64,000 bases of DNA from Promethearchaeota archaeon (lineage in GTDB: Archaea; Asgardarchaeota; Lokiarchaeia; Sigyniarchaeales; SOKP01). The translations under genes were made by a program, and so were the position numbers. The notes under the pieces were generated by a model. It saw only the letters and a program-made list of their open reading frames with translations. It ran no database searches and had not been told where the DNA came from. The stretch covers positions 1,721 through 65,720 of the forward strand of contig JBHLLU010000004.1 of NCBI GenBank assembly GCA_048938895.1, read 5' to 3'. Each line of letters starts with the position of its first letter. The first letter of the stretch is position 1. Below are positions 31,178-49,167 of this stretch, piece after piece.

Positions 31178-31888
31178 TTGGCTTTAAAATTTAATGGTTG
31201 GATTGATGGGATTACAGCCTCAGGAGTGGTATTGTTAGGGATTATCTTTGGTCTTTTTTTTATATACAGATCAAGGAAATCAGGAGCAAAGCTTCTTTCA
31301 TATCTAGGTTTAGCAAATATGCTCGCAGGTTTAATGTTCTTAGGAGTGTTTATTGATTTTTTGTTAGTTTTAATTACAGAACATAATATAGATAATAACG
31401 GAATTGTAGCTATACTTTCTTATATTTGGTTTGCCCCCGTAATAATTACATCTATGTATATAGGTGCATTGCTTCTTACCCCAAAAATTAAACTTCATAT
31501 AGTCATAATTTTTGTGATTATTTCAATAGCATTTGAAATCATAATCTTTATTGACCCTTTAACCTCATTTAATTTTATCCCTGAACCTCCTACATCCCCA
31601 GATAGATTATTAATCGACTATAATGTCAATTTACTCACATTAGCAGGAATATTGATGGGGGGATTATTATTGCCTGTTCTCATATTTCTCGGTTTTGGGT
31701 TTCTAATTAAAGGATTAAAAACTTCAGGTGTGATTCGCAAAAATTTCTTATATTTATCGGCAGGTTCTATATGTTTTTGCATATTTGGATTGCTAGAGGG
31801 GTTGACAGTTCCTGGATTTCTAGTTATAATAGTGAGGATTGGATACCTTAGTTCTTTTTGGCTTATGTATCTAGGTTTAAAAGATTAA
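31178..31888 (+). CDS. Seven-TM membrane protein (paralogue of the membrane domain of 37967..39007)
   Basis: About 7 hydrophobic segments. Blocks shared with the 37967 protein: FIYRSRKSGAKLLSYLGLANMLAGLMFLGVFIDFLLVLITEHN, IAFEIIIFIDPLTSFNF, KTSGVIRKNFLYLSAGSI, VRIGYLSSFWLMYLGLK. TTG start. Confidence 0.6.
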   Translation: MALKFNGWIDGITASGVVLLGIIFGLFFIYRSRKSGAKLLSYLGLANMLAGLMFLGVFIDFLLVLITEHNIDNNGIVAILSYIWFAPVIITSMYIGALLLTPKIKLHIVIIFVIISIAFEIIIFIDPLTSFNFIPEPPTSPDRLLIDYNVNLLTLAGILMGGLLLPVLIFLGFGFLIKGLKTSGVIRKNFLYLSAGSICFCIFGLLEGLTVPGFLVIIVRIGYLSSFWLMYLGLKD

Positions 31889-31991: not shown

Positions 31992-33032
31992 ATGGAGAGA
32001 CAAATAATTAAAGCTATTATATATAATAGTTTAGATGAAGAAGTAGGGCCTAATCCTAAGGCTTATTTCCCAGAAGATTTCTCTCAATTAGATTTACTTC
32101 ATATTAGTGTTAAAACCTTTGCTGTTCTTACTGGTGAGAAGGGTTTTATCCCACAATCTGTTGTTATTTTGCCATTTCCATCCCTACAACTAAAAGGATT
32201 GATTAAATATATTCAATGGGAAGATCCAGATAAACGTGGGGGGATTGGACAAGCAAATATAACTTTATTATTTCAGGAAATGGATGATGTAATTTTTTAT
32301 AAGTATGTAAAAGAGCTCTCAGCCCCTTTCGGAGATATAGCTCAAAATATATCCTTTTTAGAAAAATCAGGCGCACCTAAAGAACAATACATTACTGAAT
32401 TACACAATCTTAAAAATGCAATTTTAGAACTTCTTGAAGTATATAGACAGAAAGAACTAGAAGCATCGAAAATTGAAGCTCTAACTGGGCAAATTACAGA
32501 TCGAAGCATGATTGATTATCAATTTAAGATAATCGTAGTAGGGGATCCTACAGTGGGAAAAACAAGTTTAATTTTAAGATATACTGATAATGCCTTTAGA
32601 AGATCATATGTATCCACTTTAGGTGTTCATGTTTCGAACAAAATTTTTAAAACTGAAGATTCAACAATTATTCAACTCGTGCTTTGGGATGTAGGGGGAC
32701 AAGAAAGGTTTAAACTCATGAGACAACAGTTTTACCAAGGATCTGATGCTATATTTCTAGTTTTTGATTTAACAAATCCGGAGTCTTTTGGTAATATTCC
32801 AATCTGGTATTCTGAAATTAAAAAATATATAAAAACTCCAGAAGAAGAACTAGAAGGTTTTATTATTGGGAATAAAAAAGATTTGGAAGAGAGAAAAATT
32901 ACTAGTGAAAGTGCTCAAAAATTAGCTGAACAGTTTAATTTAAAGTATCTTGAGACATCTGCACTATCAGGAGAAAATGTTGATTATGCTTTTACTACCC
33001 TCGCTAAAAACCTCTTTGAATCGAGAGTATAA
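31992..33032 (+). CDS. Longin-like N-domain fused to Rab/Ras-like small GTPase
   Basis: G1 VVGDPTVGKTS, switch I YVSTLGV, G3 LWDVGGQERF, G4 GNKKDL, G5 ETSALSGENV. N-domain: IIKAIIYNSLDEEVGPNPKAYFP...VVILPFPSLQLKGLIKYIQWED. No C-terminal Cys. Confidence 0.75.
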   Translation: MERQIIKAIIYNSLDEEVGPNPKAYFPEDFSQLDLLHISVKTFAVLTGEKGFIPQSVVILPFPSLQLKGLIKYIQWEDPDKRGGIGQANITLLFQEMDDVIFYKYVKELSAPFGDIAQNISFLEKSGAPKEQYITELHNLKNAILELLEVYRQKELEASKIEALTGQITDRSMIDYQFKIIVVGDPTVGKTSLILRYTDNAFRRSYVSTLGVHVSNKIFKTEDSTIIQLVLWDVGGQERFKLMRQQFYQGSDAIFLVFDLTNPESFGNIPIWYSEIKKYIKTPEEELEGFIIGNKKDLEERKITSESAQKLAEQFNLKYLETSALSGENVDYAFTTLAKNLFESRV

Positions 33033-33073
33033 AATACATTTGCTAACTTAGATTTTTACAACAACAGGAGATC

Positions 33074-33082
33074 TTTTTTTTT
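33074..33082 (+). terminator. Oligo-T tract (T9) downstream of 31992..33032
   Basis: A T9 run 42 nt after the stop codon, on the coding strand. Confidence 0.35.
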
Positions 33083-33115
33083 CTAAAAATTCTTCATATC
33101 ATATCTTTAGAGAGA

Positions 33116-33137
33116 TCGTGAAAGCCTTGTTTCACGA
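33116..33137 (+). other. Intergenic hairpin (8-bp stem, 6-nt loop)
   Basis: TCGTGAAA gccttg TTTCACGA in the 231-nt spacer between the two longin-Rab genes. Confidence 0.3.
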
Positions 33138-33263
33138 ACTTTCGAGCAAAGTTAATAGACAATTAAGGGCAAATAGTTTTTAAAATTTTAATAATTATTA
33201 TTCAAAAAAGAACTCAAATTACTACTGTTAAACCATTAACTATTTGAGCCCATAAGCTGTCTT

Positions 33264-34289
33264 ATGTCTGAAGAGATAATCAAAGCAATCGTGTACACTT
33301 CGCTTGATGAGTCAATTGGTCCTAATCCTCTTCTATGGATCCCACTTGATTTATCAGAAAAGATTCGAATGGGAGTAGGTATTAAAACCATTACCATGCT
33401 CACCACGGATCAAGGCATCGTACCTAATTCTTTAGTAATTGTACCCTTTCCGGCATTAAAATTAAAAGGTATTATCAAATATATTGAAAGAGAAGACTAT
33501 TCTCGACGAGGAGGAGTTGCATTATCTTCTCTTGCACTACTTTTTGGTGAAGCCGATGATCTGATTTTTTATAAATATATGGAGTATCTTGAACCTGTTT
33601 TCTCAGAAACTTCGAAAAGAGTTGTTGAATTAGAAAATGAAAAAACAAAAAGTGATGAGATTTTTGTTGAATTAGATAAATTCCGTCAAAAACTAACAGA
33701 AATTTTAGATGATTTATACAAAAAAGAGAAGTCAAACTCAGAATTAGAAGCTTTTCCTGAAGAAGAGATTAAAGATGATTTATTAGAATCTAATTTCAAA
33801 ATTATTGTATGCGGAGATCCTGGCGTAGGGAAGACAAGTACTGTTCTACGACTTACAAACAATGCTTTTATGCGTACTTATGTTCCTACATTAGGAGTAA
33901 GTATATCAGAACGGTTTATGATGTTAGGAGATAAGCCTATTAATCTAATTCTTTGGGATATTGCAGGTCAAAGTAAATTTGAGATAATGCGTCGTCACTT
34001 CTATAAAGGTACAGATGCGGTTATTCTTATCTTTGATCTTACTAGCCGAAAATCATTTGAAAGTGTTTCTAATTGGTTTAAGGATATAAGAAGATATGAA
34101 AATAACGTAATTGGTATTATTTTTGGAAATAAAGAAGATCTACAGGATAAGCGAATTATCTCTTTAGAAGAAGCCTTGGAGAAGGCAGAAAGTCTAAATC
34201 TAGAATATGTTGAAACCTCTGCTTTAACAGGTAAAAATATTGAAGATAGTTTCTATAAAGTGGCTGAAACTTTATTCAAACCAAGATAA
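33264..34289 (+). CDS. Longin-like N-domain fused to Rab/Ras-like small GTPase (tandem paralogue)
   Basis: G1 VCGDPGVGKTS, YVPTLGV, G3 LWDIAGQSKF, G4 GNKEDL, G5 ETSALTGKNI. N-domain: IIKAIVYTSLDESIGPNPLLWIP...LVIVPFPALKLKGIIKYIERED. Confidence 0.75.
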   Translation: MSEEIIKAIVYTSLDESIGPNPLLWIPLDLSEKIRMGVGIKTITMLTTDQGIVPNSLVIVPFPALKLKGIIKYIEREDYSRRGGVALSSLALLFGEADDLIFYKYMEYLEPVFSETSKRVVELENEKTKSDEIFVELDKFRQKLTEILDDLYKKEKSNSELEAFPEEEIKDDLLESNFKIIVCGDPGVGKTSTVLRLTNNAFMRTYVPTLGVSISERFMMLGDKPINLILWDIAGQSKFEIMRRHFYKGTDAVILIFDLTSRKSFESVSNWFKDIRRYENNVIGIIFGNKEDLQDKRIISLEEALEKAESLNLEYVETSALTGKNIEDSFYKVAETLFKPR

Positions 34290-34294
34290 TTTCC

Positions 34295-35836
34295 TTAATT
34301 AAAAATATCAGAATCATTCCAGAAGAAGGCTTTTGATTTTAATTCGGCTTTTATCGGATATTTTATTTCTTGATATTTTTTATCTTCAACGGATAAATCT
34401 GTATTAGATACCCACCATTTTGACTTCTTAAGATCATTTCTACTGGGAATCCACTCCTTCCATATCTCAGGGAGCCATTGTTGTTCATAGAATACCATCA
34501 AATCTGTAAGATACTTTATTCTCTCCTCATCTTCAATCCATCTGCACATAGGATCGTGAAGCATCGCTTTATAAATAAGATCAATATCATTTCCTAGGGC
34601 TGCATCAACAGTTAGTCTTTGCTGTTTACAGTGTGGAAGTAATAATTCAGCGATGTGATTAGGGAGCTTGATTCCATCTAAGGGTGTAATCACCTTATTG
34701 TTAAAATAGGCGGGAATTTCAACAATGCAATCACTTGGAAGTTTATCTATAATCTTGTTTCCATTTATCTCATTTGGAATATTAACTGCATGCAAAGATT
34801 TGTCATTATCAAAAAAACTGAGAGTCATATCAATTACTCTTTCTAAACTAGGACCCCTTATGTAAAAATTTTTAGGATTATTCGTTTCCTTTATTTTTTC
34901 ATAGAAAATTCTGCGTGCATTACCAATACTAGATACATTTCTCACTTGGGGAAATTTCCAATATGATGTTTGAATTTTATAGTTAAAATAATTATAATAG
35001 TCCGGTAAAAATTCTGCTATATGACGAGAACCAGGATAAGGATAATAATTATACTTTTCTAGTAGGTGAAAATTAAATCCACCTCTGTAATCATTTACTG
35101 GAGCATTAAGATTTTTTAAGACAAATTTATGAGGGTTGGATCTTAATTTATCATAAAGATCATTTTGAGACAACCCTATTTCAGTCAACCAAGCAAAATG
35201 GTTCACTCCCGCATACTTAATATCGATTTCATGTAAATTTTTAATTTTTATACTATGGAATTTATTAAAATATTTTAAAACAGGGTTTATACCAAAATAA
35301 AGTTCATGGCAAAGTCCAACAAATTGAATATCTTTTGAAATAGTATTTGCTGCCATTACAATTGTAGATTGGGGATTAGTATAATTAAGTATCGGAGCTT
35401 TAGGACATAATTCCTTCATATCCCTTACAATTCCCATAACTATCGGAATTACCCGTAATCCACGGAAGAGTCCTCCAGGACCTACAGTATCCCCCGTATT
35501 CTGGGGAATTCCGAGTTTTAGAGGTAGATATATATCATACCATTCTGATTCTTGGGTTCCCACAGAAATTGACTTATATACTATATCAGCATTCTCGAGT
35601 ATATCACGATGATTAACTGAAGAGGTAATCTTAATATCACATTTAAATTTTTTATTAGCCTCAATTATTTTAATAAAATATTTTTTTATTAAATTCAATG
35701 ATTTTGCATTTATATCGCATAGTCCAACTTCTAATGGCAATGAATTATTTGCAGACAATAGTATTAAATCATTGAAAAAAGCTGTGGAAAATCGAAATGA
35801 ACCTGCTCCAATATATCCAATTTTAATCCGTTCCAT
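34295..35836 (-). CDS. Glycoside hydrolase family 4 (NAD-dependent alpha-glucosidase/galactosidase-like)
   Basis: IKIGYIGAGSFRFS Rossmann start, LNYTNPQS, VGLCHE, HFAWL. Confidence 0.7.
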   Translation of the reverse strand: MERIKIGYIGAGSFRFSTAFFNDLILLSANNSLPLEVGLCDINAKSLNLIKKYFIKIIEANKKFKCDIKITSSVNHRDILENADIVYKSISVGTQESEWYDIYLPLKLGIPQNTGDTVGPGGLFRGLRVIPIVMGIVRDMKELCPKAPILNYTNPQSTIVMAANTISKDIQFVGLCHELYFGINPVLKYFNKFHSIKIKNLHEIDIKYAGVNHFAWLTEIGLSQNDLYDKLRSNPHKFVLKNLNAPVNDYRGGFNFHLLEKYNYYPYPGSRHIAEFLPDYYNYFNYKIQTSYWKFPQVRNVSSIGNARRIFYEKIKETNNPKNFYIRGPSLERVIDMTLSFFDNDKSLHAVNIPNEINGNKIIDKLPSDCIVEIPAYFNNKVITPLDGIKLPNHIAELLLPHCKQQRLTVDAALGNDIDLIYKAMLHDPMCRWIEDEERIKYLTDLMVFYEQQWLPEIWKEWIPSRNDLKKSKWWVSNTDLSVEDKKYQEIKYPIKAELKSKAFFWNDSDIFN

Positions 35837-36018
35837 GTCCTATATATCCCCAATCGAGATTTCGGAAACCCCTCAGTTTTATTTAACTCTAATTTAACCC
35901 TTAAAAGTTCGCGTTATTTTTAAATTGTGTGTTATTCCAAGAAAATTTAGGTAGAAAGAAAGTTTTTATAAAATCAAAAAAATAATTATTAATTCATAAA
36001 ATAAAAATTGATACTAAA

Positions 36019-36594
36019 ATGGATTTAGAAGAAATTATCTACAAAAGAAGAACAATAAGAAGATTTAAGCAAAACCCAGTTTCAATGGAAATATTAGAAA
36101 AGTTAATTGATTTTGCTCGAGTTGCTCCAGTAGCGAGAAATGTTCAAGCTCTTGAGTTTATCATTATTGAAGATGCTGAAATAAGAAAGAAAGTATTTCC
36201 CTTAGTAAGGTGGGCTGCCTCCTTACCTGAAAATCAAAGAACTCCGGAAGAAGGAAGAGAACCTACGGCCTATATTGTAGTTTTAGTAAATAAAGATCTT
36301 AAAAATGTGTATGTGGATTTTGATGTAGGCGCTGCTGTTGAAAATATATTATTGGGTGCAGTAAGTTATGGAATTGGAGCATGTTGGATGGGAGCAATAA
36401 ACTTTAGGAAAATTAAAGCGCTTTTTGAGATCCCTGATAACTATGAAATAAAGCAGGTTATAAGTTTAGGGTATCCTGATGAAGAGTCAGTTATGGAACC
36501 TTTTAAGGATTCCTATACTTATTGGAAAGATTCAAACGGAAAGATGCATGTTCCTAAAAGGAGTTTAGATGATATTATCTTCAAGAAATATTAA
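36019..36594 (+). CDS. Nitroreductase-family protein
   Basis: RRTIRRFKQNPVS, ARVAPVARNVQ, GACWMG. Confidence 0.75.
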   Translation: MDLEEIIYKRRTIRRFKQNPVSMEILEKLIDFARVAPVARNVQALEFIIIEDAEIRKKVFPLVRWAASLPENQRTPEEGREPTAYIVVLVNKDLKNVYVDFDVGAAVENILLGAVSYGIGACWMGAINFRKIKALFEIPDNYEIKQVISLGYPDEESVMEPFKDSYTYWKDSNGKMHVPKRSLDDIIFKKY

Positions 36595-37481
36595 ATTAAT
36601 GCTGCCATATCTTTGCAATGTTTCGTAATTTGTACCATTACTTTAATTTTCTCGATATCATTAGAATCTAAATTACCCATAAAAGTGTTTGCTTGATCCA
36701 CTAGTAATTCTTTTTTTAACCATGAATTATGGGCTAATTCCAAATCTTTCTTAAGGTAAGCATTCATAACTTCATTAAAATATTGTTCAACCTCTTTGAA
36801 AAACTCCATGACATTTTCAGTGAGTCGTAAATCCCTTAAAATGACTCCAATGTCTTCTATTTTTTCACAAAACATACGTAAATCCATAGCTTCAAGTGGA
36901 GTAAAGTCAGTATCTTCTGTAACATAGATGCCTGTTCTAAGATAAGTTCTAATATGAATTACTAATATAAAATAAAATCTCTTAAGTTGTTGGAAGTTAT
37001 CATTCAACTCTTCAAAGTTTTCCTCCACTAAATTTTCAAACATATCCACTATCAAATATAATTGTCGTTGGATTAACCTTTTCGTTGGAATTGTCTTATA
37101 TCCAAAGTTTTGGATTACCATCCGTTGCCTTTGATCTTCAATGATTTCGGTATTAGGTAAACCTTTCACAAACCATTTAATTTCACTCTTTAAATCCTTA
37201 TCAATCTCCCTGTCTGAAATAACGGTGATATTAGTTTGTCCCGATAAACTGTGTTTTACAATTTCTCTAGGAACATAAGGACTAATTTGAAGTATTAATT
37301 CATCTTTTTGGGATATGTCTTCTTGAATTATTTTGGGTGAAATTAATAATGACCCATCATCTCGTATATCTATTCGAACAGGAGATTTACTTTCTAAATT
37401 GAAATTTTCAATCCAATTCTTAGGGAGACTTACGAAAAACGATCCACTGATCTTTTGAAGCTTTCGAAAAACACTTGACAT
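36591..37481 (-). CDS. AbrB/SpoVT-domain plus PhoU-domain regulator (archaeal phosphate-uptake-regulator-like)
   Basis: N-terminal SGSFFVSLPKNWIENFNL...PVRIDIRDDGSLLISP (AbrB-like swapped hairpin), followed by helical PhoU-like repeats. The stop codon overlaps the stop of 36019..36594. Confidence 0.55.
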   Translation of the reverse strand: MSSVFRKLQKISGSFFVSLPKNWIENFNLESKSPVRIDIRDDGSLLISPKIIQEDISQKDELILQISPYVPREIVKHSLSGQTNITVISDREIDKDLKSEIKWFVKGLPNTEIIEDQRQRMVIQNFGYKTIPTKRLIQRQLYLIVDMFENLVEENFEELNDNFQQLKRFYFILVIHIRTYLRTGIYVTEDTDFTPLEAMDLRMFCEKIEDIGVILRDLRLTENVMEFFKEVEQYFNEVMNAYLKKDLELAHNSWLKKELLVDQANTFMGNLDSNDIEKIKVMVQITKHCKDMAALI

Positions 37482-37637
37482 AAATAAAAAATGGTTGAGG
37501 TTTTATTTATATTTGTTTAATTTGTTTAATGTTTTTCATTCACCTTTAATATATTATACAGAACATTAATTAGTTCTTTAAACAATCTTAAAAATAATAA
37601 AAAAAAAATAAAAAAACAGTATGGAGGTAGATTTAAA

Positions 37638-37868
37638 ATGGCTGTAGGCAAAAAGAAAATAACCTCTGTGTTACTAGATTTTCCTAAATACAAAATATTA
37701 GATGAGATTGAAGAAAGTGTTAAAAAAGAAGTAAGTTTTTTCGGTACATTAGAAACTGATTCAGATCCTGTACAAATGAAAAGAAATGAAAGAAATTGGA
37801 AGCAATCAATTGGTTATTATCTTTTACATCCTGAAAAGTTCAAATTTGGGTTAAAAGATCTTAAATAA
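37638..37868 (+). CDS. Small hypothetical protein
   Basis: 76-aa ORF in an otherwise empty gap. No motif recognised. Confidence 0.3.
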   Translation: MAVGKKKITSVLLDFPKYKILDEIEESVKKEVSFFGTLETDSDPVQMKRNERNWKQSIGYYLLHPEKFKFGLKDLK

Positions 37869-37966
37869 ATATTTATTTTTTTTCTCTTTTTAAATTTAAA
37901 ATCAATCCATCAATTTTAAAAATAATTACCTTTTATTAACCTATAACGGAATCTATATAATATAAT

Positions 37967-39007
37967 GTGAATGATTTAATGCTTTTTCTATCTGTTTTAA
38001 GCGGGATTATTGGTTTAACTACATTAATTGTCCTCATAGCATTTTGTATTTCAGGAATATTATTTTATTATGTCTCAAGGAAGACAAATATAAAGCTTCT
38101 CTCTGTTATGGGAATATTTTTATTCTTCGCAGGAATTTGTTATCTTGGTATTTGTGTAGATTTCTTGACAATTATTCTAACAGGTCATAATACAACTAGG
38201 CTTATATTAGCGTACTTAATTTGGCCATTTGTTCCTATAGTTTATACACTAGGAACTTATGTCACATTTGAAATCTTAATACCTAAAAGAAAAATATACG
38301 GTATGGCAATATATATTATAATAGCCATAGTTTTTGAATTAAGCATTTTTTTAGACCCATTTGGGAACATTACTTTTGTTGTTACTAGTGATGAATTAAT
38401 TGATGATAGTCTTATCTCTGGATCTATAGCAGGAATGATAGGATCCTTTATGACTCTTTTTGGTATGTTTATTGCTATAATGGTGGTATATAAAGGTAAA
38501 AAAGCTTCTGGAGTAATTCGCAGAAAATATTATTTTTTGGCATTAGCATTTTTCATCGTCAATATATCCGCATTTTTAGATTTTATAGGAATAAGGGAGA
38601 TTGTAAGTTTTATAAGATTAGGATCTTTGAGTAGTATTTGGTTTTATTATTTAGGTTTAAGAAAAGAACCAGAAAAACGTGAAAAAAAAGAAAAGAGAGA
38701 GGAAGTAAAGATTGAGGACTCGTTATTTAGACTTACTAGAAGACCAGACCATATAACCGAAGAAGAAGTTACTTATTATAGAGAACAAAAAATTTGTCTA
38801 GTATGCAAAGGAAACGTTGGGGGCTTTAACAATTATATATGCACTGCTTGTGATGCCTTATATTGTGAAAACTGTGCACGTGCCTTATCAAATGCTGAAA
38901 ACGCTTGTTGGGTGTGTAATGAACCAATCGATAAATCTAAACCTTCAAAACCATTTAAAATTGCAGAAAAACCCAAAGAAATTGAAAAAGTTGGGAAAAA
39001 AAAATGA
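37967..39007 (+). CDS. Seven-TM membrane protein fused to a C-terminal C4C4 RING-like (binuclear treble-clef) zinc finger
   Basis: The membrane domain is paralogous to 31178..31888. A K/E-rich linker (EPEKREKKEKREE) follows, then CLVC-x11-CTAC-x4-CENC-x10-CWVC. GTG start at 37967; ATG at 37979. Confidence 0.65.
   Translation: MNDLMLFLSVLSGIIGLTTLIVLIAFCISGILFYYVSRKTNIKLLSVMGIFLFFAGICYLGICVDFLTIILTGHNTTRLILAYLIWPFVPIVYTLGTYVTFEILIPKRKIYGMAIYIIIAIVFELSIFLDPFGNITFVVTSDELIDDSLISGSIAGMIGSFMTLFGMFIAIMVVYKGKKASGVIRRKYYFLALAFFIVNISAFLDFIGIREIVSFIRLGSLSSIWFYYLGLRKEPEKREKKEKREEVKIEDSLFRLTRRPDHITEEEVTYYREQKICLVCKGNVGGFNNYICTACDALYCENCARALSNAENACWVCNEPIDKSKPSKPFKIAEKPKEIEKVGKKK
38795..38917 (+). other. 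Eight-cysteine RING/PHD-like finger coding segment
   Basis: C-x2-C-x11-C-x2-C-x4-C-x2-C-x10-C-x2-C, read directly from the translation (Cys277 to Cys317). Confidence 0.6.
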
Positions 39008-39030
39008 AAAATATGAAGAATTGAGTATTA

Positions 39031-39300
39031 ATGAGAATATCAGTTGAGGATACAAGAACAGGGAAAGTAATAAAGCTTGACGTCAGAGAACATCACCTTA
39101 TTGAACATATTATAGATATAGTTGTTAAGCATATGGGAATTATAACTGCGGAACAACGTTCCTATAATTTAGTACATAAACAACAAGAATTACCAAATTC
39201 AATAACTATTGAAGAAGCGATACACAAATATGGATTGCGAGAAGATGACAAATTATCTATGTGGGCTAGAGTCATAGGAGGTTTAGAATATAATTATTGA
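39031..39300 (+). CDS. Ubiquitin-like beta-grasp protein with internal Gly-Gly and 5-residue C-terminal tail
   Basis: MRISVEDTRTGKVIKLDVREHH...DDKLSMWARVIGG-LEYNY. The layout parallels ubiquitin (MQIFVKTLTGKTITLEV...LHLVLRLRGG). GG is encoded at 39277..39282. The gene starts 23 nt after the finger protein. Confidence 0.6.
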   Translation: MRISVEDTRTGKVIKLDVREHHLIEHIIDIVVKHMGIITAEQRSYNLVHKQQELPNSITIEEAIHKYGLREDDKLSMWARVIGGLEYNY

Positions 39301-39305
39301 ATAAA

Positions 39306-41891
39306 TTATCGCGTACTTTGAATATACTGTCTCCTTTTTTTCTGTTCCTTCTCCCATTTCTTACGTTCTGAACGAAGCTTAAATATGTCAACATCTTTAA
39401 AAATTATATTTTCCTCTTTGGGAGGGATTAACCTTTCGATCCTTTCCTTCTCTGGAGTATATATTAGCGATTCACCAAATTCAGCTACATTCACAAAAAA
39501 GCAATATGCATAAATCGATCGTCTAGCATCAAAATGAGCTGCTTTAAAATCAGCGGTAACAGGAGTAAACGCAGGATTGATAATAAAATCAATTGGGGGT
39601 TCAAAATTTTTCAATTCTACTCGTAAATCCATATCAAGAAAATCCCTACAAATAATTATTGCTATTCGACCGTATTCTGTATTACACACTATAGTTTTTC
39701 TAGGTAATATATTAACCTTAATGGATTCTTCAATTCTTTTACCTTCTATATGGATAAGCGCAGGAATATGTTTTTCTTGTTCCCAAACAATTCCTTCGGG
39801 TCCAACTACCATACTAATATTTTGGTTTGTTTCAAGATTGTGAAATGACCCTGGAATAATATACATATCATATAACTTTGCCTGGTTAGAAATTTCTTCT
39901 AAGAATTGACCAAAATTTAGATCAACTGTCATCTCAGGGAATATAAGGATATTTGCTTCATTTTCATGAGCTACCTTGATCATATTTTTGACTTTTTCAA
40001 GAATGATAGGTACTTTTTCTTCTCTTAATCCTAATAAACCTGAAGCTTTTTCTTCATAAAATTCATTTATCAAATCTCCCGACTCTGATAGTCCGATTTG
40101 GGCAATTGCTACTTTTACGTCTCTCTTTTGGATTTTTGGATATATTTCTAATAAATCATTGTAGATGAGTTTATATTTCTTCTTTTTAGTTCCCTTTTTT
40201 TCATCTTTTTCTTGAGAAATTGATGGAGTTAAAATATCTGAAGAAATAGTTGGTTCGCGTATCGTATCAAGAGCCGAGATTAATATTTTTTCTTCTTTTT
40301 CAACTAAAAGTAAACTATCTAAAACCTCTTTTTCTTTATCGTTATATCCTGCTAATCTGAAAAGTTCAGCTGCAGATTTCATTAATTCTAAGCCCAATTC
40401 TAAAAGTTTTTTCTTCTCATCAAGATTTAATTCTTCATCTGCTCTTATGATAAACCATGTACTATCGAAATATGTAGTAGTAGCTAGTGCCCAATCTGCT
40501 TCACTTTCGAAACCACCTCTTCGATAAGAGTTTGCAGCATTTCTAAGCATTGCTTTAATTTTGGGATATAATTCTGCTTTTTCTTTTGGATCATCTGACT
40601 TATCGAATTCTGAACCTAATCTTAAAGCCTGACAAAATGCAGCATTTCCTAAAGTCAAGGACTTTAGTTTAAGATCTTTAAATTTTTCACCTGCATTATT
40701 AAAGAAATCCACAGCTTCCATGTATTTATCTGGATTTTCACCCTCCTCGGCAAATTCCATGCATTCCCAACCTTTGCAGAGATAAAATAATGCATTTAAT
40801 TCTTTTCTATCCTTCTCATTCATTATATTTGAGCATAGATCCTTAAACTGAGTTGCTGCTTGAGAAAATTTTTCAGCTGCTAAAATACGGTTTCCTTGTT
40901 TCTCTAATAATCTAGCTTCATCTATCTGATCCCAAATTTTTGAATAATCTACTTTTACCTCAATTTGCTCTGGTGGTGATTCTATTTCAACAGGGGTAAT
41001 AGATTCTAAAGGTTTTTTCTCTAAGATGGACATTTGAATAATTTCAGTTAAAATTTGAATTATATTATCTTTTGAATCCTCATTATTTGCTGAAAACCTA
41101 TATGTTCTAGTATCAAACAGTTCCTCTATTTTTTCAGGTTCAAATGCCGATTCTATTAAATCCTGAAAGTTAGCGATAATAAAGAATTCTGCTTTCTCAA
41201 ATCGAGGTTTTAATTGTGAAATTAGTTTATGAGTTCTCCCTAAATTACTTGCTGCTGAGTTAGTTATAACTAAAACAATATCTGTTGATTTTAATAGAGA
41301 TTTATACAGGCTTGAGTTGTTAATTAATTCATTTAAATCAATTTCTCTCATAATGAATTGTTTTATCTCATAAAAATTAGGGAAATCAACAGGCTTCTGT
41401 ATTGTCTCAACTAAATCATCATCTAATTCAATTATTGTCTCTCCTGAAAAGAGATCCATTATGGTAGTTTTCCCAACTCCTTTTTCGCCTACCAACAATA
41501 TTTTGGGGGGAATAAAAATATTTTTCTCAACAAATTCATTAAAATCTTGAAAAATACTAATATTACCTGTCCAATTTTCTAAAAAGGGTTTATACCTTTT
41601 AATAAATTCGTTCTTCATTAATTCTAAATTAGGTCTAGCCTCTTCTTCCATATCATCTTTATCTATTACAACAACAAAAATACAGTCATATTCTAGTGAA
41701 TATGAATAAATAAAATTATAATTTTTAAAAATAAGAGCTTTAATTTCTCCAACTTTAATTTCTTTGGCAAAGCTATCTATTGCTGTGAGAAATCCACTAA
41801 TAATACTCTCGTCAATGTCAATTTGTTTAAAAAATTCCTTGGAATAACATAGAATACCACCTGGACCAATAATAAAAATTTTGTATATCAA
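39306..41891 (-). CDS. Multidomain protein: longin/roadblock-like N-domain, P-loop GTPase-like domain, helical TPR-like repeats, C-terminal carbon-nitrogen hydrolase (nitrilase-superfamily) domain
   Basis: N-terminus MIYKIFIIGPGGILCYSKEF..SGFLTAIDSFAKEI..ENWTG. P-loop LLVGEKGVGKTT, with NKxD degenerated to ANFQD. Helical repeats span about residues 330-540. The CN-hydrolase triad context is VKVAIAQIG, ILIFPE(653), EKH (K707) and AIIICRD (C748; TGT at 39648..39650). Confidence 0.65.
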   Translation of the reverse strand: MIYKIFIIGPGGILCYSKEFFKQIDIDESIISGFLTAIDSFAKEIKVGEIKALIFKNYNFIYSYSLEYDCIFVVVIDKDDMEEEARPNLELMKNEFIKRYKPFLENWTGNISIFQDFNEFVEKNIFIPPKILLVGEKGVGKTTIMDLFSGETIIELDDDLVETIQKPVDFPNFYEIKQFIMREIDLNELINNSSLYKSLLKSTDIVLVITNSAASNLGRTHKLISQLKPRFEKAEFFIIANFQDLIESAFEPEKIEELFDTRTYRFSANNEDSKDNIIQILTEIIQMSILEKKPLESITPVEIESPPEQIEVKVDYSKIWDQIDEARLLEKQGNRILAAEKFSQAATQFKDLCSNIMNEKDRKELNALFYLCKGWECMEFAEEGENPDKYMEAVDFFNNAGEKFKDLKLKSLTLGNAAFCQALRLGSEFDKSDDPKEKAELYPKIKAMLRNAANSYRRGGFESEADWALATTTYFDSTWFIIRADEELNLDEKKKLLELGLELMKSAAELFRLAGYNDKEKEVLDSLLLVEKEEKILISALDTIREPTISSDILTPSISQEKDEKKGTKKKKYKLIYNDLLEIYPKIQKRDVKVAIAQIGLSESGDLINEFYEEKASGLLGLREEKVPIILEKVKNMIKVAHENEANILIFPEMTVDLNFGQFLEEISNQAKLYDMYIIPGSFHNLETNQNISMVVGPEGIVWEQEKHIPALIHIEGKRIEESIKVNILPRKTIVCNTEYGRIAIIICRDFLDMDLRVELKNFEPPIDFIINPAFTPVTADFKAAHFDARRSIYAYCFFVNVAEFGESLIYTPEKERIERLIPPKEENIIFKDVDIFKLRSERKKWEKEQKKRRQYIQSTR

Positions 41892-41966
41892 TAGTGATCT
41901 CCCACCGTACTTATTTGTAATTAATTCAACAACATATATTAAAATTAATTAAAATGGTGAAGTTAT

Positions 41967-42536
41967 CTATTTAGAACCAGTTAATTCTTCATAAAGCGCT
42001 TTTGATTTATAATATAACTCATTAATTATGGCTAGAAAGCCATCATAAACTCTTTCTCCTGTTTTTGCTGAAGTTAAATAATACCCAATGAAGTTTTTTT
42101 TCTCTACTAATTTTTCAATTTTCTTGGTTTCTATTTGTTTTTTATCTACAAGATCGATTTTATTAGCAAATAATATAACAGGAATATCACCACAAAAATG
42201 CTTTAAGTCACTATACCAATGTGTAATGTTCTTGAAACTTTCTTTACCAAGAGAATTGTCTTCAAGAGAATATACAATTATTGCTGCACTACTATTTTTA
42301 TAAAAAGAAGGACGTAGAAAGTGAAACTCGTCTTGACCAGCAATATCCCAGAATACTAATTCACATTGATCATTTTCAATATCTTGTTTGTAATTTGAAA
42401 ATTGCGCTCCTATTGTTTTAATGTAATCCTTTTCAAAACTACCTTTTGTAAACTTCTTAATTAAACTAGTTTTCCCGACCATCCCATCTCCAATAACAGT
42501 AATCTTGTATTTATATTTGTCTTGACGCTTACTCAC
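41967..42536 (-). CDS. Rab/Ras-like small GTPase
   Basis: G1 VIGDGMVGKTS, YIKTIGAQF, G3 FWDIAGQDEF, G4 ANKIDL, G5 TSAKTGERV. No C-terminal Cys. It lies 75 nt upstream of 39306..41891 on the same strand. Confidence 0.8.
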   Translation of the reverse strand: MSKRQDKYKYKITVIGDGMVGKTSLIKKFTKGSFEKDYIKTIGAQFSNYKQDIENDQCELVFWDIAGQDEFHFLRPSFYKNSSAAIIVYSLEDNSLGKESFKNITHWYSDLKHFCGDIPVILFANKIDLVDKKQIETKKIEKLVEKKNFIGYYLTSAKTGERVYDGFLAIINELYYKSKALYEELTGSK

Positions 42537-42637
42537 AGATTAATCCAACAAAAGATGAAATTCTTATAAATATTGATATTCTTTATACAATATAACAATC
42601 TGATTACTATGAAGGATTCTTTAAAAATACATATAGT

Positions 42638-43426
42638 ATGATTATAATGGTTGCAAAAATCGAGCAAAAAATGGAAGTATTATTTGGTTTGTTTGGAGTT
42701 TTGTTTGCATCAATTCTTCTAATAATAGCTATTTTTTTTACTCCCGGATATAGCCCTTTGCTTAAACCTGTAAGTTCATTGGGGAGAGGTGAAGCAAAAT
42801 CATTATTCAGTATAAGTTTTGTAGTCGCAGGTTCCTTAAGTATTCCATTTTTCATTTCTGTTGAAAGGGAATTAGTAAATATAAAAGAAAGTGTTCGGAG
42901 ACTAGCAACTGGAGTTTCAATATTTTCTTCAGTATGTATCGCTCTAGTAGGAATAATTCCAGATGAAACTTACATCGAATTATTTTTGATGTTTCATGGT
43001 TTTGTGGCATGGGTTAGTTTTATTGGTACTTGCTTTTATATAGATCTCTATAGTGTTTTGATGTATCAAGGCCCTAAATCAAAATTATATAATGGCCCAG
43101 ATTTTAAAAGATTTTTGTCATATTTTGGTTTTAGTATTACTTTTGTATTAATAGCTTTTTTGATCACACGTGAACCCTTGATCGAGTGGATTTTGACGAC
43201 TTCTATTATAGTTTGGATTCTAATTACTGCTATTCAGATGATATCATTCAAATTCTTTAACATTCCTGGTGTTTACTATAAACGAGCACAATTTCCAGAA
43301 GCACTCAAAATGTTTGAAAATGCAATGCAGATTTTAGATCGTCTTGATTTGAATCAAGAACCCATAACTGAGACTATTCAGGAAAATATAGAATTTCTGA
43401 AAAAGCAATTAGAGAGAGAAAAATAA
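42638..43426 (+). CDS. DUF998-like multi-TM membrane protein with helical cytoplasmic tail
   Basis: 6-7 hydrophobic segments with a VSSLGRGEAKSLFSISFVVAGSL motif like its neighbour. An alternative start lies at 42671. Confidence 0.4.
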   Translation: MIIMVAKIEQKMEVLFGLFGVLFASILLIIAIFFTPGYSPLLKPVSSLGRGEAKSLFSISFVVAGSLSIPFFISVERELVNIKESVRRLATGVSIFSSVCIALVGIIPDETYIELFLMFHGFVAWVSFIGTCFYIDLYSVLMYQGPKSKLYNGPDFKRFLSYFGFSITFVLIAFLITREPLIEWILTTSIIVWILITAIQMISFKFFNIPGVYYKRAQFPEALKMFENAMQILDRLDLNQEPITETIQENIEFLKKQLEREK

Positions 43427-43622
43427 ATTAATACTAAATCAAGTTAGATTACCGAATGCTTCTATGATAACTGGAACTATGATGCTCATTTGAATATCAC
43501 AATTTCTAAATTGGGAAGAAAATAGCTTAAAACAGTCAAAGAAGGATTTTCCTCAAAGAAGGACAATGTGGAAAAAAACTATAAATATTTATGTCAATAA
43601 GTATAGATGAAATTGTGATTAT

Positions 43623-44225
43623 ATGAAGCTTGATATAAAGTTAAAATGGCCAATAAGTTGTTATACGGGAATACTTGTAATATTATTGTATTGTATTTTT
43701 ACATTTACCTCCCTTGTATTATTTCCCCCTCCATTTAGTGCTTTTGATAATTGGCTGAGCGATTTAGGTAATTCGAGTTATAATCCAAATGGAGCAGTTT
43801 TATATAACCTTGGTTGCATCTTTACAGGCATAATGCTATTCCCCTTTTTTCTGGGATTAAATAAGTGGTACAAGGAAGATTTATGGCATAAAATTCTCTT
43901 GATAGTTATTCAAGGTATAGGATGCTTTTCAGGATTTGCCCTGATTATGATTGGCGTTTTCTCAGAAGATTTTGGGACCCCACATGTATTCTGGTCTGAT
44001 GTTTTTTTCGAGTTAAATCTTTTGGTTTTAATTCTTGCGTCAATAGCATTATATTTCCACCCCGAATTTATTAAATGGATTTCTATTTATGGAATTGTTG
44101 TTGCTGTAATCAATTTACTTTTCGTTTTCTTCTTAGGCACACCAATTTTAGAGTGGTTTACTGTTTTTACTGCTCTTGGTTATGTTGGGTTAATAGTTTT
44201 TAATATGCATCAGAAATTTCGATGA
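43623..44225 (+). CDS. DUF998-like multi-TM membrane protein
   Basis: WLSDLGNSSYNPNGAVLYNLGCIFTGIML is the pattern I associate with DUF998. Six hydrophobic segments. Confidence 0.45.
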   Translation: MKLDIKLKWPISCYTGILVILLYCIFTFTSLVLFPPPFSAFDNWLSDLGNSSYNPNGAVLYNLGCIFTGIMLFPFFLGLNKWYKEDLWHKILLIVIQGIGCFSGFALIMIGVFSEDFGTPHVFWSDVFFELNLLVLILASIALYFHPEFIKWISIYGIVVAVINLLFVFFLGTPILEWFTVFTALGYVGLIVFNMHQKFR

Positions 44226-44314
44226 TCTCAATCTTTAAATTCCTGTTTTTTTATTTCTCTGATTATTCCAGTACTTTCCCATTTGGTGTTCTGATTTGAA
44301 ATTATCATAGTTCT

Positions 44315-45025
44315 TTATTCTCTTATATAATGATAAGCGCCACATCTTAGACATTGATAGCGATTATTATCTAATTCCTTAAAATTATTTTTTTCTTTAC
44401 AATTTGCACATATTTTATTTATAATTTCTTTTCCAGAAATATCTATTACTTTTGAGATTCTCATTAAAAATAATTTTTCAGGGATTTTGGTAGATTCATA
44501 TTCATCTAAAAAATGAGTTTTTATTAATGTCTCTTCAATTGTATTTAAAACTGCTATTCTTCTGTAATAAAACTCTTTTTTTTTTTCTTTTTTGTTCTTA
44601 AAAGGAGTGATTCTAAAGCCTATTGCTTTTATTTCAAATTGATGTTCATAGTTGAGTTCTATAGAATAGGATATATTCGTTAATGATTTCTTAATAGAAT
44701 AAGCCTTAATAATTGGGAAATTGTATTTGAATTTACCTAGTTCTTCATCAGAAAATGTTTCTCTCATTTCTCTGGTTATGGCCCATTTAATTGATTTTTC
44801 TTTTTCTTTTTCATCTAATGTAGCAAGAGCCATTAATGAAGCACCTAACAATCCTGCTATATTCCCTCCAAGGGAAATTGCAGCTGCATTCATTGGTATT
44901 CGCTTTATAGCACCTATCCCCCCAATTCTTAAATTTGTTAAAAGTAAATTTCCTTTAAATTCCTCCCCATATCTTTCTACCTTACCCTTAAAAGAGATTA
45001 CTAGATTTTCTCTTTCATCTTGCAT
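44315..45025 (-). CDS. Hypothetical protein: PH/GRAM-like N-terminus, C-terminal zinc ribbon
   Basis: FKGNLLLTNLRIGG resembles the G-x-L-x-L-T-x-x-R strand of bacterial PH/GRAM-like domains. C-terminus: CANCKEKNN...YQCLRCGAYHY. Confidence 0.35.
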   Translation of the reverse strand: MQDERENLVISFKGKVERYGEEFKGNLLLTNLRIGGIGAIKRIPMNAAAISLGGNIAGLLGASLMALATLDEKEKEKSIKWAITREMRETFSDEELGKFKYNFPIIKAYSIKKSLTNISYSIELNYEHQFEIKAIGFRITPFKNKKEKKKEFYYRRIAVLNTIEETLIKTHFLDEYESTKIPEKLFLMRISKVIDISGKEIINKICANCKEKNNFKELDNNRYQCLRCGAYHYIRE

Positions 45026-45059
45026 GATTATACAATTGATTTTAGAACATATTCTGTTG

Positions 45060-45809
45060 TTATTCTAAAATTCTTCCATTTGGTAATATCATATCATATT
45101 CAGCATAAAAACCACCTAAATCTTTAATTGCATCTTCTAAAACAACATTTGAAATATCATATTTAGATGGTTTACTTATTAGTTTATTAGTTGTAGCTCC
45201 ATTTTGTATGTAAATTTCTTCAATTTTGATAAAAGTTTCTGTAAGTTGTCTAAGAGCTGGTTTTGTGTTATTTTCAATGTCTGGAATTAATTTTACGTTA
45301 TAAAACGGAAGACTATCAAACATATCTCTTGGGCTTAGACCAGGTTCATCATTTGTGATTTCCCCACTAATATCAAATATTTTTATTCCTTTTCTAGTAA
45401 CACTTCCGTTAATTCTATTTTTTTTAACTTTAGAAAGCTTTATTTCTGCGATTTTCTTAGGAATCCCCCAAATTTCTCTCCCTGCGGCTAAAGCAACATC
45501 ATCATCAACATATATACTAAATACATACATTCCTGGTTTGTTTTTATAAGTACAACTTAAAAGAAGTAGAGCTTCATTATAACGCCCAATAGAAGTTTCC
45601 GGATATTCCAGAACAACGAGAGAATCAAGACTACTTTCGATAGATTCTAATTCTGGAGGTAAATAATTCTTCTTTAGATTAGGAGCGCATTGAAATATTA
45701 GTGCAAGAGCACGAGCTTTTTTGTAGATAATTGGTGGGGGTGGATATAATCCATGTTGTTGAGGCATTGAATATCCCACATTTTGATTCTTTTCTATCAT
45801 AATTTTCAT
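45060..45809 (-). CDS. Acetoacetate decarboxylase (ADC) family protein
   Basis: LYPPPPIIYKKARALALIF, VALAAGREIWGIPKK; ~250-aa length. Confidence 0.6.
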   Translation of the reverse strand: MKIMIEKNQNVGYSMPQQHGLYPPPPIIYKKARALALIFQCAPNLKKNYLPPELESIESSLDSLVVLEYPETSIGRYNEALLLLSCTYKNKPGMYVFSIYVDDDVALAAGREIWGIPKKIAEIKLSKVKKNRINGSVTRKGIKIFDISGEITNDEPGLSPRDMFDSLPFYNVKLIPDIENNTKPALRQLTETFIKIEEIYIQNGATTNKLISKPSKYDISNVVLEDAIKDLGGFYAEYDMILPNGRILE

Positions 45810-45833
45810 CTCATCTCCTCAAAAATAAATTAT

Positions 45834-46067
45834 TTAAAGGGGTACGACAATATGCGTTTGTGTTCTGTCTACACCCTCAATTTTATGAATTTTAGCTAAT
45901 ATTGTTTTTGCAATAGTTTCGACATCTTTACCTTCGATTTTTGTTATTATGTCAATTCCTCCTGTTACAGAATAAGTTTCTTTTACTTCATCAATACTAT
46001 TTAATTCTTCTACAACAGACTCTACAAAACCAGCTTTAACTTTCATTAAGACAAAGCATAATGTCAA
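45834..46067 (-). CDS. Stand-alone Lrp/AsnC-type ligand-binding (RAM) domain protein
   Basis: 77 aa: CFVLMKVKAGFVESVVEELNSIDEVKETYSVTGGIDIITKIEG...GVDRTQTHIVV. TTG start. Confidence 0.6.
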   Translation of the reverse strand: MTLCFVLMKVKAGFVESVVEELNSIDEVKETYSVTGGIDIITKIEGKDVETIAKTILAKIHKIEGVDRTQTHIVVPL

Positions 46068-46095
46068 ATTTTGGACTCATCTCAATAAAATTATT

Positions 46096-46920
46096 TTGAT
46101 CATTATGATGATTATCTGGGGAATTTATAAGTTTTACAGTTCATTAGAGATTTTAGATATGAAAGAAAAGATTCGGAATTTATTTAACAATTTCATTAAT
46201 CATTATAAAGAAATAAATACCATTAAGACTAAATGGAGAGCACCACTCATAGCATTTGCGAATGCTAAGGATCCACTTTTCAATCAGTTAAAACAAGTAG
46301 TGGACAAAGATCATAAGCACCCCCGCGAATTACTTAAAAATGCTAACAGTGTAATAAGCTTTTTTATTCCATTTAACGAAGAAATTGTACTTAGCAATTC
46401 TAAAGGTGTTAATGCTTCAAAAAACTGGGCAATTGCTTACATTGAAACAAATAAACTATTAATTGAATTAACAAAGTATGTAGCTAACTATTTAGAAGAG
46501 GAAAGCTATGATTGCTTTCAAATAGCTCCAACTCATAATTTTGACGAAAAAAGATTAATAAGCTACTGGTCTCATCGACATATTGCTTATATTGCAGGAT
46601 TGGGAAAGTTAGGTATACATAATATGCTTATAACTGAAAAAGGGTGTTGCGGAAGATTAGGAAGCTTAATAACATCAGCATCAATTGACGCTACAGAAAG
46701 AAGTGAAAAGGAGTATTGCCTTTTTTTTCAGGATGGAAGCTGTAAACAGTGTATTGATAAATGTTTAGTAGGTGCATTAAATTTAGATTCGTTTGATCGA
46801 TATAAATGCTATGAGATTTGTAAAAGAAACGAGGGACTTTATTCACTTCACGGAGTATCAGATGTGTGTGGAAAATGCGCATGTGGGATTCCATGTTCGT
46901 TAAAAAACCCTTGTAAATAA
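46096..46920 (+). CDS. 4Fe-4S cluster protein, epoxyqueuosine-reductase/reductive-dehalogenase-like
   Basis: WRAPLIAFANAKDPLF..., CGRLGS, CKQCIDKCLVGAL and CGKCACGIPC cysteine clusters. A likely ATG start lies at 46159. Confidence 0.45.
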   Translation: MIIMMIIWGIYKFYSSLEILDMKEKIRNLFNNFINHYKEINTIKTKWRAPLIAFANAKDPLFNQLKQVVDKDHKHPRELLKNANSVISFFIPFNEEIVLSNSKGVNASKNWAIAYIETNKLLIELTKYVANYLEEESYDCFQIAPTHNFDEKRLISYWSHRHIAYIAGLGKLGIHNMLITEKGCCGRLGSLITSASIDATERSEKEYCLFFQDGSCKQCIDKCLVGALNLDSFDRYKCYEICKRNEGLYSLHGVSDVCGKCACGIPCSLKNPCK

Positions 46921-46951
46921 GCAAAAATAAAAAAAATAAAAAAAAATGAAA

Positions 46952-48406: not shown

Positions 48407-48573
48407 CTAATGTCACAAATTTGTGGTAAAATTTAAGATTTAAATGAAATTAGATTTTTAACCTTTTAAAACTATACTAATCTATTCAAAATATCAACCA
48501 TCTTAATATTATTCATTTAAACAAAATCACTTAAGGAAAGACATTTTATTTTTATTAAAAAATAACTACAAAT

Positions 48574-49167
48574 TTGATAAAAATGGCTGATTTAAAACTT
48601 GAAGTGGTATATTTTGAAACTGGAGGACCTAGTAATACAGAAAAGGCTTTAGAGATCGCTAAAAAATACGCTGAACAGTTCGATATTAAAGATATTATAA
48701 TGGCTAGTACCACAGGTTCAACAGCTGAGAAATCTCTTGAACTTTTTGACGCTAATAATTATAATTTAGTAGTCATAACACATTCCTATTATTTTGTTGG
48801 AGCAAATGTTAGGCAAGAATTTCCTGAAGAAAAAATGGCAGATCTAAAGGATAAGGGCTTGAAATTCTTTATAGGTACTCATGCTTTTGCAGGTCCAGAA
48901 AGGAGTATGAGAATTTCCCTTAAAGAATGGGGTCCAGTTGAAATTATGGCTAAGTATTTGCGTACAAATTTTAGTCAAGGAATGAAAGTATGTATGGAAA
49001 TTGCTACAATGGCTGTCGATGGGGGTTTAATAGAGGACATTGAAAAGGATATTATTTGCATTGGAGGAACTGGTCGTGGGGCAGACACAGTTTGCGTTAT
49101 AAAACCTGCACCTACTAGTTTATTTGACAAATTACGAGTAAAAATGATACTATGCAAACCATTATAA
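48574..49167 (+). CDS. Pyruvate kinase C-terminal (alpha/beta) domain-like protein
   Basis: VVYFETGGPSNTEKALEIAKKYAEQFDIKDIIMASTTGSTA ... GGTGRGADT. A likely ATG start lies at 48583. Confidence 0.5.
   Translation: MIKMADLKLEVVYFETGGPSNTEKALEIAKKYAEQFDIKDIIMASTTGSTAEKSLELFDANNYNLVVITHSYYFVGANVRQEFPEEKMADLKDKGLKFFIGTHAFAGPERSMRISLKEWGPVEIMAKYLRTNFSQGMKVCMEIATMAVDGGLIEDIEKDIICIGGTGRGADTVCVIKPAPTSLFDKLRVKMILCKPL

Follow-up and report, generated by a model that had tools for sequence, protein, structure and literature searches.

The 64-kb stretch of Promethearchaeota contig JBHLLU010000004.1 analysed here over its whole length (the window; G+C ~30%) contains a block of genes that comparison with related genomes identifies as a satellite of the Asgard ubiquitin locus. 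It consists of a small open reading frame (ORF), a gene for a seven-transmembrane (7TM) protein with a C-terminal RING-like finger, and, on the same strand, a gene for an 89-amino-acid (aa) ubiquitin-like protein (Ubl) that starts 23 nt past the stop codon of the 7TM-finger gene; a convergent gene encoding 861 aa lies 5 nt further on (Table 1). An earlier note made from the DNA letters had described the two central genes, and both the coordinates of the small ORF for the Ubl and its C-terminus, RVIGG-LEYNY, were confirmed. All named homologues of both genes are from Asgard archaea (Promethearchaeota), and the source names of the 389 homologues collected for the 7TM-finger protein are likewise all Asgard.

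The model of the 89-aa product is a beta-grasp with the order b-b-a-b-b-a-b (predicted local distance difference test score, pLDDT, 83). Its 50 best fold matches in the PDB are ubiquitin, NEDD8 and SUMO (E ~1e-6, TM-score ~0.8, 21-26% identity) with ubiquitin and NEDD8 ranked best, and a search of the Ubl profile against PDB sequences matched ubiquitin and NEDD8 alone, end to end and GG on GG, bearing out the ubiquitin-like identity proposed in the earlier note. Homologues of the protein (n = 82) are 84-96 aa long and 57-97% identical. The GG is invariant in a 30-sequence alignment, where it is followed by 0-12 unconserved residues and one sequence stops at GG, and V[IV]GG is present in all 77 of the orthologous Ubl genes collected from related genomes, with unconserved tails of 0-11 aa and some genes stopping exactly at GG. 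Every listed tail in this 77-gene set also has R or K four positions before the end of GG, which we take to be the position of ubiquitin R72.

The sulfur-carrier proteins ThiS, MoaD, SAMP and Urm1 usually end at GG and act without a UBC-type ubiquitin-conjugating enzyme (E2). The window protein shares with them the beta-grasp, the C-terminal GG and, as predicted, activation by a ThiF-type activating enzyme (E1), whereas it differs from them in the post-GG tails of most orthologues, in the UBC E2 and JAMM protease genes that adjoin the Ubl in relatives, and in having ubiquitin and NEDD8 as best folds. Identities as UFM1 and as Urm1/SAMP were both ruled out, given the fold and sequence matches to ubiquitin and NEDD8 and the adjoining UBC E2 of relatives. 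The gene is labelled 'hypothetical' in the source databases. We are confident, short of certainty, that this ORF is the cluster's pro-ubiquitin, and the predicted cleavage of its tail and conjugation to targets have precedents in Caldiarchaeum and Helarchaeia.

To describe the surroundings of orthologous genes, we used a context set of 77 Ubl genes in 75 loci of species-representative genomes, fetched with the Ubl profile and annotated with hidden Markov models built for this analysis; the position of the finger gene was scorable at 67 loci. A UBC-type E2 gene is found directly downstream of the Ubl in 64/77, E2, ThiF-type E1 and JAB all lie within the fetched stretch in 57/77, and the longin-like/GTPase family, represented in the window by the 861-aa gene, is in the locus in 63/77, making it a conserved member of the ubiquitin cluster. 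At two orthologue loci the Ubl is followed by convergent genes with UQ_con, ThiF and JAB domains. The finger gene stands directly upstream of the Ubl, on the same strand and within 500 bp, at 26 of the 67 scorable loci, no more than 5 kb upstream at 37 and within 10 kb on either side at 46, and it frequently occurs in two or three tandem copies per cluster; no other RING-like gene was found to recur in the annotated loci. The counts over the 77 Ubl genes therefore give a canonical order in which the small ORF (where present), one to three 7TM-finger genes and the Ubl lie on one strand and meet, convergently and in this order outwards from the Ubl, the genes for E2, E1, the JAMM protease and the longin-like/GTPase protein, the last with or without helical repeats and CN_hydrolase.

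The adjacency of finger and Ubl genes noted earlier for the window thus recurs in many Asgard genomes, inside an E2-E1-JAMM operon. Finger proteins adjacent to a Ubl are 20-84% identical to the window protein, and in one case (L003/L033) a 64-aa remnant of the finger gene, a pseudogene, is left just upstream of the Ubl. The cluster enzymes keep their motifs: the JAMM motif in 58/58 JAB proteins, HPN...ICLNVL in the E2 proteins, and GxGxxG and the CxxC pairs in the E1 proteins.

None of these enzymes is encoded in the window. Pfam searches of every ORF of 100 aa or more detected no ThiF, UQ_con or JAB domain in the 64 kb, and tblastn and jackhmmer with the operon proteins of relatives as queries detected no E1, E2 or JAB there, in agreement with what the earlier note had stated. 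The same E2-less layout is seen for eight Ubl genes at seven loci of the context set (L011, L063 with two, L065, L068, L071, L072 and L075). Of the seven E2-less loci with a GTPase neighbour, six share their genome with a full cluster (partners L033, L069, L030, L062 and L027), so that E1, E2 and JAMM are most likely supplied in trans for the window copy as well. One such genome, CP070831, has several Ubl loci, of which L069 (2.66 Mb) is a full cluster with the finger gene adjoining and L063 consists of rearranged copies. The latter (L063 = L001, CP070831.1, 1.97 Mb region) is made up of two tandem repeats of a rearranged module without E1, E2 or JAMM, ordered as a winged-helix protein, the Ubl, a convergent GTPase/helical protein and then a 7TM-finger gene on the minus strand.

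A further locus, L084 (JBHLOC010000007.1), is syntenic with 31992..50386 of the window and shares with it the order Ras GTPase, nitroreductase, 7TM-finger, DUF998, ADC, MFS, PK_C-like and aminotransferase, but it has neither the Ubl nor the 861-aa gene. This pattern suggests that the ubiquitin block was either inserted or lost beside a finger gene already in place.

Table 1. Coordinates of the ubiquitin block and associated features, in window positions
Feature	Position	Strand	Remarks
7TM protein gene with C-terminal RING-like finger	37979..39007	+	342 aa from ATG 37979; mechanical ORF from GTG 37967
Seven-helix membrane module	37979..38659	+	N-terminus outside, C-terminus inside; without Pfam family; AlphaFold model, hydropathy
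K/E-rich disordered linker	38660..38737	+	pLDDT <50 at residues 236-257
Conserved cytoplasmic finger domain	38738..38956	+	pre-finger helix (ITEEEVTYYREQK), eight ligands, PIDKSKPSKPF tail
Eight Cys codons of the finger	38795..38917	+
89-aa Ubl ORF	39031..39300	+
Mature Asgard ubiquitin	39031..39282	+	84 aa, ending RVIGG; orthologue alignment, model, fold and profile matches
Pro-peptide LEYNY and stop codon	39283..39300	+	predicted JAMM/Rpn11-type removal, enzyme encoded elsewhere; Caldiarchaeum precedent
861-aa gene, convergent	39306..41891	-	longin-like N-terminal domain, P-loop small-GTPase-like domain, helical repeat region, CN_hydrolase
Small conserved ORF	37638..37868	+	76 aa; precedes finger gene in several related loci
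Finger-less 7TM paralogue	31178..31888	+	236 aa, ends YLGLKD

The 7TM-finger gene was read mechanically as an ORF of 346 aa (37967..39007, +); its true start is probably the ATG rather than the GTG, because homologues begin MLFLS and the identical database protein P0001 is 342 aa long. The AlphaFold model of the protein has a mean pLDDT of 83, rising above 90 across the membrane part, and shows seven long helices, in agreement with hydropathy, and an extracytoplasmic beta-hairpin at residues 135-149; the roughly seven hydrophobic segments and the K/E-rich linker of the earlier description are both found in it. K and R are concentrated between helices TM1 and TM2, TM3 and TM4, and TM5 and TM6, as well as behind TM7, which places the N-terminus outside and the C-terminus inside, with the finger in the cytoplasm. 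Source databases label 7TM-finger proteins as B-box, PHD or DC1 proteins.

Read off the translation, the eight Cys of the finger are spaced C-x2-C-x11-C-x2-C-x4-C-x2-C-x10-C-x2-C, exactly as reported before. Residue counts over 62 full-length family members showed seven ligand Cys to be invariant, ligand 5 to be C (58) or H (4), and a Trp after ligand 7 to be invariant as well, and the mean pairwise identity is 53% in the finger against 27% in the transmembrane (TM) part. The invariance of the ligands, like that of GG in the Ubl, speaks against a chance pattern. The window finger alone reaches the gathering score of zf-C3HC4_3 (27.5 vs 27 bits), while other fingers of the family match Prok-RING_1 (2.3e-8), C1_2 and PHD, with matches to FYVE-type models too. 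The best solved structure is the C4C4 RING of TFIIH p44 (E 5e-4 in the profile search, hhalign probability 81%, 23% identity). In the AlphaFold model two short strands (289-291 and 298-300) are followed by a helix (301-309) that begins at ligands 5-6, a beta-beta-alpha layout as in RING.

Two other zinc-binding classes have hallmarks that can be compared with these. In the PHD finger (C4HC3), a histone or lipid reader, ligand 5 is His and an aromatic residue is conserved two positions before ligand 7; here ligand 5 is Cys in 58/62 members, the invariant Trp stands after and not before ligand 7, and the PHD model matches 6/18 fingers. A double zinc ribbon consists of two sequential four-Cys ribbons with beta-hairpins only and no helix. 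As judged from sequence, the finger is of the RING type, and the binuclear cross-brace that the earlier note had proposed is more likely for it than a pair of zinc ribbons: its profile scores best with cross-brace families, ribbon models score lower, and the modelled helix carries ligands 5 and 6.

The spacing of the window finger is also identical to that of srfp, the RING protein of the Caldiarchaeum ubiquitin operon, whose motif is C-X2-C-X11-C-X2-C-X4-H-X2-C-X10-C-X2-C in the available text of PMC3082918, and the srfp His at ligand 5 also occurs in the finger family. According to the accessible parts of PMC5654768, srfp is required for ubiquitylation in the reconstituted E1/E2/E3 cascade in vitro, and its I30Q, W58A and R69A mutants are impaired in that cascade. 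By numbering derived from the published motif, with ligand 1 as residue 28, these residues fall at ligand 1 +2, ligand 6 +4 and ligand 8 +1; the equivalent of I30 on this numbering is V, I or M in 62/62 members and that of W58 is L, M or I in 62/62. We lean towards the finger protein acting as a membrane-bound ubiquitin ligase (E3), with a catalytic role predicted from these residues and from the spacing. Stand-alone small finger proteins, returned by the search with the finger profile, were considered as a separate srfp-like class and rejected, as several are clearly pieces from the C-terminal end of TM-finger proteins or come from split genes for them. The spacing shared by the p44 RING (PDB 1Z60) and srfp raises the possibility that the p44 RING descends from the archaeal RING type.

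The membrane part matched no Pfam family in the 40/40 members examined. A fold search with the full-length model returned weak, generic matches to G-protein-coupled receptors (GPCRs) and rhodopsins (E ~0.02, TM-score 0.35-0.54), and GPCR/rhodopsin homology was not accepted on weak generic 7TM matches alone. An exhaustive search with the 7TM module by itself found 200 proteins among 1.84 billion representatives. Among the best 150 of these 200 matches, 67 join the module to the finger, 30 consist of the module only, nine carry TIR_2 (P0328, P0359 and P0436 among them), four carry HisKA and HATPase_c, with or without PAS (P0323, P0343, P0410 and P0412), three have a longin-like tail (P0383, P0384 and P0396), and one has two fingers (P0375); fragments or truncated finger genes make up most of the remaining 36. 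Pfam confirmed the kinase and TIR domains joined to the module, and the longin-like tail is weakly similar to the N-terminal end of the 861-aa protein (BLASTP E 4e-4).

Because one module pairs with alternative signalling outputs, we read the 7TM module as a sensor-type input. In prokaryotic 7TM-receptor sensor proteins a 7TM input module is joined to a histidine kinase or to another output, and the present family resembles them in having an N-terminal 7TM module followed by HisKA and HATPase_c, by TIR_2, by the finger or by nothing, while it differs in that the module matches no Pfam 7TM family. We know of no RING output described on such sensor modules. A module that bears the RING here and histidine kinase or TIR domains in other proteins suggests a receptor-type E3. 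The window also contains a finger-less 7TM paralogue that stops exactly where the linker would begin, and a finger-less paralogue is present at this relative position, ~6-7 kb upstream of the Ubl, in L007, L010, L024, L038, L058 and L066 too.

The best explanation overall, to which we give a probability of about 0.62, is that the window holds a satellite ubiquitin locus encoding pro-ubiquitin and a membrane-bound, possibly signal-controlled ubiquitin ligase. In this view the LEYNY tail would be cut off by a JAMM/Rpn11-type protease to leave RVIGG as the new end; the ubiquitin would then be activated by a ThiF-type E1 and carried by a UBC-type E2, both from genes at other places in the genome. 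The cytoplasmic finger, of srfp type, would bring E2~ubiquitin to the membrane and promote transfer onto membrane-proximal targets or onto the 7TM-finger protein itself. The 7TM module would provide the input, a signal perceived in or across the membrane setting the activity of the ligase, and the longin-like/GTPase/CN-hydrolase gene would be part of the same functional cluster. The parts of this proposal are not equally firm. What the data show is which protein the Ubl is, that its GG does not vary, the fold class of the finger as judged from sequence, the link with the operon and the network of domain architectures; E3 catalysis, processing of the tail, enzymes supplied in trans and signal control are inferred from these. 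Control of the ligase by a signal through the 7TM module is a tentative suggestion, and it is just as speculative that the family as such comprises receptor-type ubiquitin ligases in which a 7TM module sensing a ligand or the state of the membrane gates a srfp-type RING, together with a longin-like/GTPase partner.

Several observations weigh against this reading. The window has none of the three enzyme domains, as described above. At ligand 8 +1, the position of the srfp linchpin R69, the family has N (31), E (14), D (7), M (4), S (2) and L (1), so that the six commonest residues, which cover 59/62 members, include no K or R. The p44 C4C4 RING, the best structural match, is mainly a protein-interaction RING. 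The double zinc ribbon models DZR and DZR_2 match weakly in all members, below the RING-type models. At four distant paralogue loci (five genes), one of them L084, neither a Ubl nor an E1, E2, JAB or GTPase gene lies within 8 kb. The finger family is therefore larger than the cluster, which fits E3s yet weakens the strict cognate pair of the earlier note; with dispersed finger paralogues that have no Ubl nearby, that description is too narrow.

The alternative that survives best, although we think it unlikely, is that the finger is a ubiquitin- or E2-binding adaptor and not a catalytic E3, and that the 7TM part is a receptor or cargo that is ubiquitylated itself or docks ubiquitylated proteins. 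In favour of an adaptor are the missing basic linchpin after ligand 8, the matches to PHD, C1 and FYVE-type models, and the excess of finger over TM conservation, as would suit a finger that binds any strongly conserved partner, such as the Ubl (60-97% identical). An adaptor fits less well with a spacing identical to that of srfp, a proven E3 of the same kind of operon, with conserved hydrophobics at the E2-contact positions, and with the finding that no other RING-like gene recurs in the clusters.

The 861-aa gene bears on a second alternative. The N-terminal 297 aa of its product are 54% identical to the gene after JAB in L005, and the C-terminal 550 aa are 60% identical to a CN_hydrolase protein beside the cluster in L003. 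CN_hydrolase scores above the cutoff (28.8 bits), with a possible catalytic Cys motif, IICRD, found by eye, and the GTPase-like part has sub-threshold Roc/Arf/Ras matches only. A firm Roadblock/longin assignment of the N-terminus was dropped, the longin-type Pfam matches being sub-threshold, hence 'longin-like'. In the majority of Asgard ubiquitin clusters this family stands after the JAMM gene, as one fused gene like that of the window or as separate genes. It is conceivable, and less probable than an adaptor, that the 7TM-finger protein is a signalling receptor whose p44-like interaction finger couples to this longin-like/GTPase protein, the linkage with ubiquitin being regulatory or historical. 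The match to p44, the gene pairing in the GTDB relative nearest to the window protein (68%), which is convergent with a GTPase/CN-hydrolase gene and not with a Ubl, the longin-like tail of some 7TM relatives with its resemblance to the N-terminus of the GTPase protein, and the occurrence of the GTPase family in 63/77 loci are all in keeping with such a receptor. However, the GTPase gene itself lies inside the E2-E1-JAB cluster, so both roles are compatible, and the srfp-type spacing and the same-strand position directly upstream of the Ubl in 26 loci count against a receptor of this kind. Lastly, a fortuitous adjacency, with the finger being a pair of separate zinc ribbons on a membrane protein that has nothing to do with ubiquitin, would agree with the weak DZR and DZR_2 matches and the four paralogue loci without a ubiquitin gene but is very improbable, as the adjacency recurs across many species, RING-type models outscore ribbon models, the model has a helix at ligands 5-6 that ribbons do not have, and the spacing is that of srfp.

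Other genes around the block were recorded as well. The small ORF in front of the finger gene contains an FPKY-ILDEI-E segment that resembles part of larger winged-helix/TPR proteins, and such winged-helix/TPR proteins lie directly upstream of the Ubl in clusters without an upstream finger gene. On the other side of the small ORF, 36591..37481 (-) encodes a 296-aa protein that starts with a MazE/AbrB-type SpoVT domain and weakly resembles PhoU in its C-terminal part; it is kept beside the locus in the close relative L007. The window has six more small-GTPase genes, at 10363..11829 (-), 16044..17018 (-), 21761..23272 (+), 31992..33032 (+), 33264..34289 (+) and 41967..42536 (-), three of them Gtr1/RagA-like with long N-terminal extensions and three Ras/Roc-like. 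Such a density of small GTPases is typical of Asgard genomes.

Eukaryotes have polytopic membrane RING E3 ligases in Hrd1/synoviolin, MARCH/RING-CH and Doa10, and in Hrd1 the RING lies C-terminal to the TM bundle. The 7TM-finger protein is like these in having a multi-pass membrane domain and, after it, a RING on the cytoplasmic side, by which E2~Ub would be recruited to the membrane. Its finger, of the C4C4/C4HC3 subtype, has x4 separating ligands 4 and 5, unlike RING-H2 or RING-CH, and searches of the TM part found no sequence or fold match to Hrd1, MARCH or Doa10, only generic 7TM matches at E ~0.02; homology of the whole protein with eukaryotic membrane RING E3s is not supported. The RING of TFIIH p44/Ssl1 has the same C4C4 spacing throughout, but p44 is a nuclear transcription/repair factor without a membrane part or a ubiquitin operon.

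The closest known system is the ubiquitin operon itself. In the available text of PMC3082918, PMC5654768 and PMC6043591, operons of Ub, E1, E2, srfp and Rpn11 are known from Aigarchaeota and Asgard archaea, with post-GG pro-peptides removed by Rpn11, and the accessible part of a preprint on Helarchaeia describes an Asgard E1/E2/RING cascade that is functional in vitro, with a pro-ubiquitin bearing a four-residue tail (bioRxiv 10.1101/2023.07.25.550441). The window locus shares with the Caldiarchaeum and Asgard operons a beta-grasp Ub with a pro-peptide after GG, its relatives have UBC E2, ThiF E1 and JAMM protease genes adjoining, and its RING has the srfp spacing, including the His variant at ligand 5 in the family. 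It is unlike the Caldiarchaeum operon in that its RING forms the C-terminal domain of a 7TM protein, whereas srfp is small and soluble, and in that one to three tandem 7TM-finger copies are possible per Asgard cluster. Two further differences are a linchpin residue that is not basic and a longin-like/GTPase gene that is constant in the present clusters, and the window copy differs in lacking E1, E2 and JAMM. Within the text available from the Asgard and Caldiarchaeum ubiquitin literature, we found neither a 7TM sensor-type carrier of the cluster RING, nor the tandem and dispersed 7TM-finger expansion, nor the enzyme-less satellite loci, nor the constant longin-like/GTPase/CN-hydrolase partner, though an earlier description of each is possible. 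The ubiquitin system as a whole, which the earlier note had not recognised, is thus already known, and it is the RING on a 7TM module that seems new.

Membrane ubiquitylation in eukaryotes drives endoplasmic-reticulum-associated degradation (ERAD), endocytic sorting and trafficking that depends on the endosomal sorting complexes (ESCRT). A RING on a polytopic, sensor-type protein would, if true, be an archaeal membrane E3, and the 7TM-finger protein offers a concrete, testable route to membrane substrates of archaeal ubiquitin. The tandem and dispersed paralogues, with a fast-evolving membrane part and a constant finger, look like an early expansion of E3 specificity before eukaryotes, and the constant longin-like/GTPase neighbour hints at a link between ubiquitin and small-GTPase control. 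If the ligase is indeed of receptor type, Asgard membrane signals would be coupled directly to ubiquitylation, and the family would stand, in a prokaryote, as a precursor of ubiquitin signalling coupled to receptors and of the ubiquitylation of membrane proteins seen in ERAD and endosomal sorting.

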